In this document: positions 3,001 through 28,377 of the stretch, in pieces
Numbering within the stretch: the first letter of the stretch is position 1
Layout of the letters: the number at the start of each line of letters is the position of its first letter
Assembly: GCA_027077325.1 (NCBI GenBank)
Contig: JALTGF010000052.1
Location: forward strand, 1 to 34,402
Source of the DNA: an archaeon
GTDB lineage: Archaea; Undinarchaeota; Undinarchaeia; Undinarchaeales; JALTGF01
DNA length: 34,402 nt
Direction of reading: 5' to 3'
Notes under the pieces: model-generated
The model's database searches: none
Seen by the model: the letters and a program-made list of their open reading frames with translations, nothing else
What the model was told of the DNA's origin: nothing
Made by a program: the position numbers and the translations under genes

Positions 3001-4019
3001 GAATATCCAGTATTTCCAGAAGTATCTTGAACATAAACCTTAAATGTGTAAGTTCCAGAAGATAACCCTGTTTTGTTTTCCCAATAAACATTCCCGTTGT
3101 TATTATCAAATGTTTCAGATGCGCCGTTCCAAATCAAATTTACTGTTTGCGGATTGTCTTCAATAACTGTTGCATTTATAAAAATCCAATCCTTTTTGTA
3201 TGTCCCATTCAGGTCTGTATTTGGATTAAAATTGATTACTGGTGCGACTGTATCATCGCTAGTTTGTGCCCAGTCAACCAGTCCAGTTCCTCTGTTTCCA
3301 ACATCATCAACAGTGACTGTCTTTATTTGGTAAGAAGTACTTGGTTGAAGTCCGGTTGCATTAAAGTATTCATTTGTAGTGTTTTCTTTAAACACACCAT
3401 TAATCCAAATCTCCGTGTGGTCAAAATCTGAATCAGTTGGATTGTTCCATGTCCAATAAATCCAATTTGTCCCAACAGATTGCTCTCCTAAATTATAAAC
3501 AACGTGTGGTGGCGTAGTGTCAATTGTTAATGTTCTCGTTTGGCTGTAAACCAAGTTAGAATTGCTGTCTATGCACCTTATTTTCCATCTATAAGTTCCT
3601 TCGGTGGTTTCAGTGATAGGAACGCCATTGTATCTCCCATCTGCATTTACAGATAAGTTGCTCCATTTTTGTGAGCCATTATACCAGAGAGAGCATCCAA
3701 CAGTTGCATCATCTGGATCACTAACAGAAAAATTATGTATGTTTGTTGTTTCTTTTGTTTTGTAGTTATTTGGCGGGGAATACAAAGTTATTACAGGATA
3801 TGCACTCCCGGTCACTACAGGGGGGGTTGGCCCCGAATCTATTACTTTTGATGTTGTTGGGCTTGTTTTATTTGTGCCAATCCCTAAAAAATGGACTCCT
3901 AAAACGTGGTTTTGTGTTGGGCTTTTCTTAATTATGAAAAAAGAAGCATATATAGGGCTAACTAAAAGTAATGTAATCAATACTGTCACTGCCAAGAGTT
4001 TCGCTACATTTTTAGTCAT
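1..4019 (-). CDS. Large secreted/cell-surface repeat protein (Ig-like/fibronectin-III-like domains), 5' part only; continues off the left edge (>1330 aa)
   Basis: Absent from the ORF track because no stop lies in the window. ATG at 4019 is preceded by GGGTGA. The N-terminus MTKNVAKLLAVTVLITLLLVSPIYA looks like a signal peptide. Spot checks at ~3320, 2920, 1790, 620 and 59 give the same frame. Repeated modules include DTxAP, WIYWQWTNPSDADFDH...NATGLNP.TLYEI and GETWTCEVT. The protein is Thr/Asn-rich with many N-x-S/T sequons. Confidence 0.88.
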   Translation of the reverse strand, partial: MTKNVAKLLAVTVLITLLLVSPIYASFFIIKKSPTQNHVLGVHFLGIGTNKTSPTTSKVIDSGPTPPVVTGSAYPVITLYSPPNNYKTKETTNIHNFSVSDPDDATVGCSLWYNGSQKWSNLSVNADGRYNGVPITETTEGTYRWKIRCIDSNSNLVYSQTRTLTIDTTPPHVVYNLGEQSVGTNWIYWTWNNPTDSDFDHTEIWINGVFKENTTNEYFNATGLQPSTSYQIKTVTVDDVGNRGTGLVDWAQTSDDTVAPVINFNPNTDLNGTYKKDWIFINATVIEDNPQTVNLIWNGASETFDNNNGNVYWENKTGLSSGTYTFKVYVQDTSGNTGYSEERKVILDTTAPAGVSDLNETAIGETWIYWQWTNPSDADFDHVEVWLNGTFQENTTNEYFNATGLNPDTLYEIEIRSVDTAGNIGSFVNDTARTLTVDTLPTFDFVRINPSSPRTDDDLNCEFQYQDAENLTLPADITWYKNNIRDNEWDTTVTAQNNTLMSSNGPTASDTTAGETWTCEVTLHDRDGDVAQNSSSVTISGIPNTAPGVYITTPNNTYTRNTSPTIDYYFIDNENETGNATLYFDGNSVATEFNVQNNTPSTITPTSAQSEGTHTYYIEVYDGKDTGVSATQTITIDITAPNINYITYTDANGTYAKNWISVNVSATDANLDSVTLEWNGVNESFAQNAGDAYWTNKTGLASGTYTFRAWAEDLAENKVSTPLRTITLDNSYPGSISNLRETAVGTTWIYWQWTNPSDADFDHTEIWINGTHVADTSNPYYNATGLNPNTLYEIGTHTVDNVGNVNPNWVNDTARTLKVNHPPFFGWVNVTPDSPLSNQNLGCSFLADDNENNDFYANVTWYRDGSHLTNWDSTNIAVNNNTATNAPNAPSAADTQAGETWTCEVTVWDASGSNAMNGSETIQNVPNTKPGVYLVSPDNNSITNDNTPTHQFYFIDNENQTTSCTLYYNSSPLATNSTTFNNTVTDLTVPSSVLDGVYNWYVTCDDGISTAQSDVRTITVDTVAPSLYYNSNTDSNGTYSKDWVFINVTADDNVQLDSVVLEWNGVNETFDNHTGTLYWENKTGLAERTYTFKVYANDTAGSVVSTGERAVTLDRTPPVTVSNLDETARGTTWIYWQWTNPSDADFDHTEIWINGTHVADTSNPYYNATGLNPNTLYEIGTHTVDNVGNVNTFWINDTARTLKSQNHAPTLNLVDVIPDNPTSSDNLGCNFRFTDNENSTLLANVTWYRDGIHLNNWDQTNLAVTNNTLESTPTAPAYTDTSTGETWTCEVTVWDSAGASAMNGSETIQSSTPNTLPTIYITTRNSTIVSTSTPTIQFY
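447..626. repeat. 180-bp exact direct repeat, copy 1 (intragenic)
   Basis: Identical to 1602-1781; offset 1155 bp = 385 codons. Confidence 0.95.
1602..1781. repeat. 180-bp exact direct repeat, copy 2; a partial third copy lies at ~2875-2924
   Basis: Identical to 447-626. About 50 bp at 2875-2924 match with one substitution (offset 1143 bp). Confidence 0.95.
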
Positions 4020-4101
4020 TCACCCAAACATTGAGTTATTATATAGTAAAAGGGGTATTTATATTTTTGGATTTTTACCACTGGTCAGTTAAAAATATAA
4101 A

Positions 4102-4123
4102 ATCAGGTGGGGCCAGCGTGATA
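4102..4123 (-). repeat. Orphan copy of the tRNA-Phe 3' end (22 nt identical), next to a 9-bp hairpin
   Basis: atcaggtggggccagcgtgata at 4102-4123 equals 4206-4227. Inverted repeat ctaggaacc (4130-4138) / ggttcctag (4157-4165). Confidence 0.92.
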
Positions 4124-4211
4124 CCCTAGCTAGGAACCTGCTTTGCAATTTATCCCGGTTCCTAGAACCTCCAGTAATAGAAATTATGACTACAAACAAA
4201 AAGTTATCAGG

Positions 4212-4326
4212 TGGGGCCAGCGTGATATCCAGCCGCACTGAATGCACAAAAGCGGCAGTGACGGCGTTTGAACACGCGACACCCAGATCTTCAGTCTGGT
4301 GCTCTCCCGAGCTGAGCTATGGCCCC
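4212..4326 (-). tRNA. tRNA-Phe(GAA) with a 41-nt BHB intron at T-loop position 59/60 (4226-4266)
   Basis: Acceptor GGGGCCA/TGGCCCC, anticodon arm CCAGA-CTGAAGA-TCTGG, T arm GCGTG-TTCAAA|intron|T-CACGC. BHB: TTCA:TGGA helix, bulges AA|C and TA|T, flanked by GCCG:CGGC. Confidence 0.95.
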
Positions 4327-4490
4327 ATTTTATAACATCTCATTAGTCTCTCTTATTATATATTAGTATTATATCATGTGAGTGTTTTTTACTTTTCTTA
4401 AGTTGTTGTTCTTGATTTGTTAAATCTATCTTATATATCTTTTTAAACCTCAAACTTTATAAGTCCAAAACACCTAACTTTAAAAAGATT

Positions 4491-26291: not shown

Positions 26292-27337
26292 TTACCTTTT
26301 TCCAATTCTTCTTTAATTATCTTTAGTTTCTTTTTATAATTCCAGATTAGCCATTCTTTTTTAATAATTACGTGGTAAATCAGTAGATATGCTATGGCAG
26401 TAACTAGGACTATATCCCAAAAATTAATGATTAAGAATGAATAGATGTAGATAACTAATGTGTGGCCAATCCTATCTAATATATCAAATTCGGGAGACTT
26501 TAACCTAACAACTTTGTACTCAACTTTTTTGTTTGAAACACTTACCTTAATATAATGGTAAAAATAGTGTTTGGGATCGGAGCCCATTAGTTCGGCGCCT
26601 GCACCCCCGGTGACAATGTACGGCGTATTGCTCCAATTGCCTCTGAAATATCCATGCACATGAGATGCAAAAACCATAGTTACATTGTACCTGTGAAAAA
26701 GATTATTCAAGTTTCTTGCACAGGACCTATTCTCCAATCCATAATATGTGGTGTGATTGCTCTCTCTCGGGTCATACAGTGGCACATGCATGAAAACAAA
26801 GCGATATCGATAATCCTGGCTTTTTTGCAGTTCATTTTTTAACCAATTCATTTGCCAACTGTCAATGCATTTTTCATTTGAATCATCCAAAATCAGGAAA
26901 TAACTATTATTGAGGGCAAAAGAGTAATAGAATCTCCCAAACATATCATAATAATTTCCCCTTCCGTTTCCTATCAGTTCGTGATTACCTATCACGGTAA
27001 GCAATGGTTTATTAAAGTTTTTAATTTGCTTGATAAAAAAGTGAAGCGCCTCTTTCTCGCCATCAAAAGCCAAATCGCCATCATCAATAGAAAACAGGAC
27101 ATTTTCCTTATTTACTTTTTTTATTAAAGAATTAAATGTTGTTACTGAATTCTTATTGTCTCCAAAAACCACAAATGAAAAATTGCTTTGTGTTTTGTTT
27201 ATTTCTTGTATTTGATTATAATTCCAGTTTTTTATGACAGGAAATGAAATCATGTCATAAATATTTACGCTAATAGCAGTCAGTAGAAAGACTAGAACTA
27301 TCGCCATTACATACTCATTAAATATTTTTGTCTTCAT
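26288..27337 (-). CDS. Membrane-anchored calcineurin-like metallophosphoesterase
   Basis: GD, GDL, GNHE, MHVP and SHVH motifs; N- and C-terminal TM segments. Confidence 0.88.
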   Translation of the reverse strand: MKTKIFNEYVMAIVLVFLLTAISVNIYDMISFPVIKNWNYNQIQEINKTQSNFSFVVFGDNKNSVTTFNSLIKKVNKENVLFSIDDGDLAFDGEKEALHFFIKQIKNFNKPLLTVIGNHELIGNGRGNYYDMFGRFYYSFALNNSYFLILDDSNEKCIDSWQMNWLKNELQKSQDYRYRFVFMHVPLYDPRESNHTTYYGLENRSCARNLNNLFHRYNVTMVFASHVHGYFRGNWSNTPYIVTGGAGAELMGSDPKHYFYHYIKVSVSNKKVEYKVVRLKSPEFDILDRIGHTLVIYIYSFLIINFWDIVLVTAIAYLLIYHVIIKKEWLIWNYKKKLKIIKEELEKGK

Positions 27338-27387
27338 CTTGATATGTATACATTAGATAGATGATACCCTAAATAGTTTATGATTTT

Positions 27388-28377
27388 CTAATCGCCATAT
27401 CCATTTGGATGCTTGCTATGCCATTCCCACGCGCTTGAAATAATTTCATTTATCCCATACTCAGGGCTCCAACCAAAAAGTTTTTTTGCTTTTTTATAGG
27501 ACGCAATAAGCACTGGTGGGTCTCCCGCCCTCCTTTTTTCATAGGTTACTGGTATCTCCATGCTAGTAATCTTTCTGCATGCTTCTATAATGTCTTTGAC
27601 AGAGTATCCTTTCTCATTTCCAAGATTGACTTCCTCACTTTTCATATGATCCCCCATATACTCAAGGGCAAGTTTGTGTGCCTTGCAAATATCTAGGACA
27701 TGAATATAATCTCTAACTGCTGTGCCGTCCTTGGTTGGATAGTCTGTTCCATATACGCTTATCTCCTTGCGTTTTTTCAATGCTACCTGCAAAACTAGCG
27801 GTATTAAGTGAGTTTCAGGCTGGTGGTCCTCGCCAATGTCCCCGCTAAAGTCTGCCCCGGCAACATTGAAATATCTCAAAGCAACATACTTAAGACCATA
27901 GGATTTATCATATCTTCTCAGTATTTGTTCAACCATCAATTTTGTCAGTCCATAGGTGTTTATAGGTTTTTTCGGATGGTCTTCTGTAATTGGTGTGTAT
28001 ACGGGAACTCCATAAACTGCTGCTGATGAGGAAAATACCAACTTTAAGCAGTTATGCTGTATCATCGCATCCAGCAAATTTATTGTATTCACAACATTGT
28101 TTCTAAAAAATTTTTTTGGGTCCCTCTCCGATTCACCAACTTCTATGGAACCAGCCAGATGGATTACAGAATCAATATCATGCTTGTTAAAAATTTTGTC
28201 TAATCCCTTTTTATCAGATAGGTCAATCTTGTAAAATGTTGTGCCTTTTGGAAGTGCTTCTTTGTGGCCATTTGACAAATTATCCAAGACAATTATGTTT
28301 TTCCCGGATTTTTTTAAGTAGTGAACTATATGGCTCCCAATATATCCCGCGCCACCTGTAACTAATGTGTATTTCAT
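27388..28377 (-). CDS. galE: UDP-glucose 4-epimerase
   Basis: GGAGYIGSH, SSSAAVYG, YGLTK, LRYFNVAGA, DGTAVRDYIHV. Confidence 0.96.
   Translation of the reverse strand: MKYTLVTGGAGYIGSHIVHYLKKSGKNIIVLDNLSNGHKEALPKGTTFYKIDLSDKKGLDKIFNKHDIDSVIHLAGSIEVGESERDPKKFFRNNVVNTINLLDAMIQHNCLKLVFSSSAAVYGVPVYTPITEDHPKKPINTYGLTKLMVEQILRRYDKSYGLKYVALRYFNVAGADFSGDIGEDHQPETHLIPLVLQVALKKRKEISVYGTDYPTKDGTAVRDYIHVLDICKAHKLALEYMGDHMKSEEVNLGNEKGYSVKDIIEACRKITSMEIPVTYEKRRAGDPPVLIASYKKAKKLFGWSPEYGINEIISSAWEWHSKHPNGYGD

Follow-up and report, generated by a model that had tools for sequence, protein, structure and literature searches.

Introns of the bulge-helix-bulge (BHB) type have spread between archaeal tRNA genes in the Thermoproteales, and it has long been asked where archaeal tRNA introns originate and why new tRNAs come to carry them at new positions. 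The accessible text of one study gives the processes behind archaeal tRNA intron gain as not identified and connects intron gain, as well as tRNA fragments, with a mobile element (PMC3293823). In E. coli, tRNA-linked repeats (TLRs) are gene-less units that lie behind a tRNA or rRNA gene and end in an 18- to 19-bp copy of its 3' end (PMC8144298). REP palindromes and Rickettsia palindromic elements (RPE) are small gene-less hairpin repeats, found also inside genes (PMC3733652, PMC3184786), and direct repeats running from a tRNA T-loop to the 3' end form a recognised class of att sites (PMC8371274). Elements of the IS1549/IS1634 type make variable duplications of 8 to 514 bp for which no mechanistic model is given, and two members have long variable repeats (PMC2266710).

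We looked into a tRNA-Phe(GAA) gene on the minus strand of a 34,402-nt stretch of archaeal DNA (the window), which was called neither by ARAGORN nor by Rfam at the gathering score; a permissive ARAGORN run on the whole genome gave mostly false calls, which were left uncounted. Exon 1 (4267 to 4326) extends from the 5' end to T-loop position 59 and is matched by the tRNA-Phe genes of relatives, and exon 2 (4212 to 4225), the copy that completes the gene, extends from T60 to discriminator A73. Between them lies a 41-nt T-loop (59/60) intron (4226 to 4266) with a full BHB (5/5 pairs in h1, 4/4 in the central helix, and 4/4 in h2). A contig from run X3 carries identical tRNA-Phe exons but lacks the 41-nt intron between them, in support of the intron boundaries.

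A preliminary description of this DNA had reported a second tRNA-Phe tail downstream of the gene, and our analysis confirmed it. Positions 4206 to 4227 (copy 1) and 4102 to 4123 (copy 2, the duplicated target) are identical over 22 nt at a distance of 104 nt, and the repeat comprises the last two intron bases, T60, the 3' T stem, the acceptor strand, A73, and six trailer bases. The repeat is not due to chance, although such repeats are not unique in this 769-kb genome, for which 20 exact repeats of at least 22 nt within 300 nt were listed. The copies, both on the minus strand like everything between them, are separated by a gene-less insert of 82 nt (4124 to 4205), in which a run of five T's (4198 to 4202), a putative terminator, follows copy 1. 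A separately assembled contig from run X1, which may be the source sample, covers 3950 to 4336 without differences. Among the four runs analyzed, X1 alone covers the insert, and neither joints that skip the insert nor an empty allele of the exact tRNA-Phe insertion site was seen. No second copy of the 82-nt insert was found in this assembly and no Rfam family was found for it. The flank matches a relative at about 4072 to 4094.

Copy 2 is joined to the flank upstream of a gene for a surface-type protein. This open-ended ORF runs on the minus strand from position 4019 to the 5' end of the window, comprises 1339 aa or more, has Ig-like and fn3 domains in repeated form and three internal repeats, and probably encodes a surface protein.

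Read along the minus strand, the insert contains a conserved Shine-Dalgarno-like GGAGGT (4167 to 4172) at the 5' foot of a hairpin (4130 to 4165), which consists of the 9-bp stem of the preliminary description (4165 to 4157 with 4138 to 4130) and an 18-nt loop. A G-rich linker (4124 to 4129) terminates the insert, and GG or GGG precedes the copied target in relatives too. The stem had been placed at the position that the intron stem occupies in the real gene, a reading that we correct: it ends 8 nt before T60, compared with 6 nt for the intron stem, and is in another register. The 41-nt intron is unrelated to the downstream hairpin. Taken alone, the hairpin folded no better than shuffled sequences (z = -1.27), and its support comes from covariation in homologs.

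The repeat had been read as a possible alternative 3' acceptor, by which read-through transcripts spliced to the second copy would release a 145-nt intron and yield an identical tRNA. The T stem can form with either copy, the 2-nt bulge included, and some archaeal splicing endonucleases have broad specificity according to the accessible part of the literature. Yet pairing of the second copy with the 5' exon gave only 3/4 pairs in the central helix (two of them G-U, with one mismatch) and 2/8 in the outer helix, compared with 4/4 and 4/4 at the real site, so that a BHB, with a 4-bp central helix between two 3-nt bulges and with flanking helices, is not predicted around a 145-nt intron. Moreover, the real site competes in cis, the T5 run (4202 to 4198) separates the copies, an identical product implies no selection for splicing to the second copy, and the same layout occurs behind intron-less tRNAs and protein genes. 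We therefore give almost no credence to an alternative acceptor, and the second tail copy, although real, probably does not act as a spare exon.

We compared the hairpin region with 41 genomes by blastn, prior to building any model, and matches were obtained in four of them (G001, G002, G004, and G005). The hairpin lies behind an intron-less tRNA-Phe in G005, where the unit terminates in a copy of the tRNA-Phe 3' end, behind tRNA-Arg(UCU) in G001 and G002, and also behind tRNA-Arg(UCG) in G002, each of the tRNA-Arg cases with its own 3'-end copy. Judged by its sequence matches, the hairpin is not specific to tRNA-Phe. We aligned 30 rows (alignment A1) from pattern scans of the phylum, of metagenomes, and of species genomes, leaving out rows with fewer than 5/6 outer stem pairs, GC-rich matches in coding regions, and duplicate loci. 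The stem was paired in 99.6% of 270 cells, a figure biased upward by the pairing prefilter, and GGAGGT was demanded by the search pattern, which makes its invariance in A1 partly circular. Two-sided changes were found in 16 stem cells, none of 500 shuffles was as high, and slid controls stayed at or below 55%. One G-U pair was retained in 27/30 rows, which points to a single-stranded fold on the minus (element) strand. The family core has about 43 nt, with GGAGGT and the covarying 9-bp stem, and together with the G-rich linker it recurs in DPANN archaea.

Model R1 detected 25 copies in 8/17 genomes of the phylum, the window's own match being there by construction, together with matches in 19/121 genomes of a second group (the class of an Aenigmatarchaeota-titled record) and in 6/151 genomes of a third (the phylum of a Woesearchaeota-titled record). 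One row of R1 and the center of the third-group search come from an unpublished genome, G045, which enters none of the counts given below. Copy number was low, from 1 to 8 per genome, and several copies are orthologous, so the counts do not all represent independent events. Tandem 90-nt units and nested inserts occur among the copies. No description of the family was found in the literature searched, a body of text that mostly excluded subscription papers and supplements.

We then analyzed what the copies duplicate, scoring an exact repeat of at least 14 nt that started 0 to 7 nt after the model end and matched DNA no more than 300 nt upstream. Such a 3'-side repeat, of 14 to 61 nt, was found in 17/25 phylum copies but in only 9/5000 random windows. 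The 17 duplications correspond to 11 tRNA ends (Phe, Arg, Ser, Leu, and one untyped), two tandem 90-nt units, and four targets other than tRNA genes: 25 nt of the pheT 3' end, 26 nt of the cdc48 start (in antisense), 28 nt of the 3' end of a primase gene, and an AT-rich 16-mer. In the third group, a repeat of at least 14 nt was present in 5/11 examined copies, and 9/11 lay behind tRNA genes. The length of the duplication and the left part of the element varied among phylum copies, and the layout was constant in the frame of the element: target, variable left part, GGAGGT, hairpin, G-rich linker, and target copy. In G003, which belongs to the same genus, the pheT site is empty, and the left part and hairpin seen at pheT are instead found behind a tRNA that, by our reading of its sequence, would be of the Ser type. 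We consider it likely that the 82-nt stretch (4205 to 4124) is a small gene-less mobile hairpin element and that the 22-nt repeat is its target duplication.

An attR scar would offer another explanation: the hairpin would be an arm conserved among tyrosine-integrase elements whose targets are tRNA T-loops, and the repeat would be the attL/attR identity block of an element whose body was lost by deletion. The repeat at tRNA-Phe does run from the T-loop to past the 3' end, as in that recognised att class (PMC8371274, accessible text). Furthermore, the copy pairs at the guaA end and at tRNA-Leu are diverged, a 140-aa ORF separates tRNA-Thr from a degenerate 3' copy in one case, and integrase-family matches occur in 7/17 phylum genomes, with two in this genome, both on other contigs. 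At L061 (guaA), the two copies differ at six synonymous positions, as read by eye, and at L101 the two T stems differ in sequence while both remain paired; such pairs look as if selection had acted on both copies, are better explained by a replacement fragment that the element carried than by a recent duplication, and keep the att scar in play. However, unlike in attL/attR pairs, no integrase gene or fragment and no long body lies between the repeats, which enclose 82 nt here, and the target is not fixed (tRNA-Phe, -Arg, -Ser, and -Leu, pheT, cdc48, and primase). The ends of unrelated protein genes and one gene start are copied exactly, one and the same composite sits at pheT or at a tRNA depending on the genome, and copies that lack a repeat are found upstream of start codons and, in either orientation, in introns. 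In addition, scans of viral contigs gave one chance match inside a coding region and were blank in two cases. We regard an att scar as unlikely and retain the mobile hairpin element as the preferred reading.

A duplication of at least 14 nt was lacking in 8/25 phylum copies, comprising the two diverged pairs (tRNA-Thr, with the ORF inside, and guaA, with a gap of N's), two copies in tRNA introns, two in a ribosomal-protein gene spacer, and two upstream of genes. In the second group, none of the 26 examined copies, from 52 matches listed, had a repeat of this length. Evaluation of the tRNA genes revealed the family in predicted 37/38 introns of nine tRNAs (Ala, Gln, Val, and Arg), four times in sense and five times in antisense; one of the nine contigs carries a bacterial title and was probably misbinned. 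The hairpin foot was within 2 nt of the predicted splice site in 8/9 of these copies, with fitted boundaries, and all nine had perfect 5-bp anticodon stems and 5 to 8 of 8 BHB pairs, with boundaries picked for the best score. One sequence thus recurs with BHB-like ends in the 37/38 introns of different tRNAs, as in the known spread of BHB introns between tRNA genes, but the antisense copies and the targets other than tRNA genes distinguish the family from that process, since it is not confined to splicing substrates.

The intron copies bear on the other suggestion of the preliminary description, a displaced earlier intron: the unit would be a former 59/60 intron that was moved downstream, exon included, by recombination of a new intron-exon pair into the gene. 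The intron-like character of the hairpin was partly borne out, in that homologs lie in the predicted 37/38 introns of nine other tRNAs. In addition, several T-loop introns occur in this genome, and in many copies of the T-loop type a TGGG linker could, from its sequence, pair with the T-loop like a BHB central helix, which leaves some room for T-loop-intron ancestry. Against a displaced intron, the stem is absent as an intron from the examined tRNA-Phe genes of relatives, all nine analyzed intron copies are at 37/38 with no examined copy found as a T-loop intron without a duplicated exon, and the unit of hairpin, linker, and copy also lies behind intron-less tRNAs and protein genes. The linker at the tRNA-Phe locus forms only 3/4 pairs, and G-rich 4-mers wobble-pair easily with TTC. 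Displacement of a former intron appears distinctly improbable to us, and we continue to favor insertion of a mobile element.

In the second group, an ATG that opens at least 45 codons was found at the hairpin foot in 10/29 copies, compared with 275/3000 random places. One family copy lies in antisense within an RNase P RNA match that was below the gathering score. We also considered that the insert might function as a small RNA released from the tRNA trailer, in which the copied end would signal processing; such a role would be compatible with a mobile origin. The layout resembles that of TLRs, three of which are processed sRNAs according to the accessible text of PMC8144298, G-U pairs are kept on one strand of the stem, and two segments match the antisense of the 16S rRNA 3' tail (15 nt, 0/2000 shuffles, in a comparison made post hoc). 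However, presence is patchy at orthologous sites, copies occur in antisense, the host gene differs from genome to genome, and the second of the 16S-matching segments is broken in variants found with the model. A small RNA function is thus highly improbable, and at the tRNA-Phe locus the element is probably inert.

The locus shares with TLRs a 3' end that is identical to the 3' end of the upstream tRNA. As described in the accessible text of PMC8144298, TLRs nonetheless differ from the family, which copies 14 to 61 nt, also targets protein genes, and is found ahead of start codons and, in either orientation, within tRNA introns. A short tag lies 5' of the hairpin in REP sequences, and GGAGGT occupies the corresponding place here; it is not the GTAG or CGTC tag of PMC3733652, in whose accessible text no mention of GGAG was found. 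The family further differs from REP/RPE repeats in its low copy number (1 to 8 copies per genome, without the high numbers of REP/REPIN sequences), in its long one-sided duplication, and in its intron-forming copies.

We then searched for a mobilizing enzyme, and none was found that is common to the copy-bearing genomes. The Y1 transposase, the partner (RAYT) of REP/REPIN sequences, was found in 0/17 phylum genomes (completeness of 72 to 98%) and in 2/5 copy-rich genomes of the second group, where the motif was not nearby. Reverse transcriptases were present in 1/5 and 2/5 genomes of the two genome sets searched, with no convincing motif on the reverse transcriptase contig of this genome. DDE transposases, IS110 transposases, and Cas1 were each found in 1/5 genomes and TnpB-like matches were scattered; no DDE transposase was found in the four relatives searched and no Cas1 in this genome. 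Variable duplications recall IS1549/IS1634, from which the insert differs in having no terminal inverted repeats and in the absence of DDE transposases from the four relatives. Nor does it have the inverted repeats at both ends and the short fixed duplication of MITEs, its repeats being 14 to 61 nt long or absent, or the Cas1-family casposase and terminal inverted repeats of casposons. As in SINE-like, target-primed elements, a conserved structured 3' end is combined with a variable 5' part and a variable duplication, but no partner reverse transcriptase sharing the 3' end was found. Contigs C95, C180, C38, C14, and C179 of this genome (G000) carry two IS1634 transposases, a weak third DDE transposase, an IS110 transposase, and a reverse transcriptase, and the IS1634, IS110, and reverse transcriptase contigs (1.1 to 1.9 kb) are possible contaminants of the bin. 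The one IS end visible on C180 is, by eye, unlike the family motif.

We propose that the element is non-autonomous and inserted at the 3' side of the tRNA-Phe T-loop. A trans-acting enzyme would recognize the single-stranded hairpin end and join it precisely to a nick in the target, and resolution of the other end at a variable distance further on would copy 0 to 60 nt of one side (nick-and-copy). Only harmless outcomes would survive. The copy would restore a gene that is hit in sense near its 3' end or in antisense near its 5' end, as at cdc48 and, with another hairpin family, at the tRNA-Thr of contig C1; an insert at anticodon position 37/38 would be removed by the splicing endonuclease; and before a start codon the GGAGGT of the element may serve as a ribosome-binding site. 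The tRNA-Phe itself would mature by removal of its 41-nt intron and use of the first 3' copy, with the second one inert. The second copy starts with the last two bases of the intron, while most other T-loop copies start with AAT or AT; this start suggests that the insertion may postdate the intron, although one chance base would give the same picture. An m1A58 reverse-transcription stop as the origin of the repeat start was set aside, as protein-gene targets show the same junction.

The family would belong among the small palindromic mobile elements, with a testable link to the origin of tRNA introns. The occurrence of one family as predicted 37/38 introns, as a trailer insert, and as a neighbor of protein genes makes a mobile-element origin testable with defined sequences. 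More tentatively, and with doubt outweighing confidence, we suggest that DPANN archaea host undescribed minimal mobile elements, moved by a target-primed or HUH-like nick-and-copy reaction with long one-sided duplications, in which one module of about 43 nt takes three guises and is a source of new tRNA introns. If so, the module could be tolerated within a tRNA as an intron, ahead of a gene as a ribosome-binding site whose hairpin is looped out, or downstream of a gene as a trailer to the repaired end. Such elements would then be a present-day source of archaeal tRNA introns, and the tRNA-Phe locus a frozen T-loop insertion rescued by exon duplication. For annotation, tRNA 3'-end repeats in DPANN archaea need not be integrated viruses or alternative exons.

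Several observations were made beside the family at tRNA-Phe. Other hairpins are nested inside the core at L136, L141, L142, and L168, and at L168 to L172 of G003 the left part of some composites comes from a further repeat family, which has an A-rich tract and a hairpin. A post hoc comparison of the core (4172 to 4135) with the last 40 nt of 16S rRNA (L174, G001) gave two collinear segments in antisense, seen in 1/286 16S windows; the second segment is broken in many variants. The position at which duplications begin is also a recurrent site of T-loop introns in this genome, with further 59/60 inserts in a tRNA-Lys-like gene (window, about 21160 to 21050, minus strand) and in tRNA-Pro on C181 of G000, and these introns might shield or mark duplication sites. 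On the minus strand of the window, 7215 to 6879 contains a tRNA-Ser(UGA), assigned from its anticodon arm and missed by ARAGORN, with a 42-nt T-loop intron (7146 to 7105) and two stacked inserts of other hairpin families (7029 to 7006 and 6947 to 6920), each of which ends in a copy of the tRNA 3' end (6996 to 6982 and 6892 to 6879). Also on this strand, a tRNA at about 34382 to 34183, called Ala by ARAGORN, reads as Thr(UGU) and has an anticodon intron with an antisense hairpin like that of the 6947 to 6920 family; a near-identical stretch is found on C40.

Six more tRNA genes, on C182, C181, C46, C6, C104, and C1 of G000, have an end copied across a short insert, exactly or with changes; on C1 the copied end is the 5' end of tRNA-Thr, and the insert carries another hairpin family. 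In G001 (C11, about 27150 to 27780, L025), a tRNA-Phe has a 630-nt anticodon intron with an ORF inside, which we take to be related to LAGLIDADG endonucleases, and another hairpin insert with a 3'-end copy is found at the same locus. In G009 (L008), an insert of about 110 nt from another family lies behind tRNA-Phe together with a 21-nt repeat, and the same tRNA-Phe site is empty in G006 (L006), a genome of the same genus.
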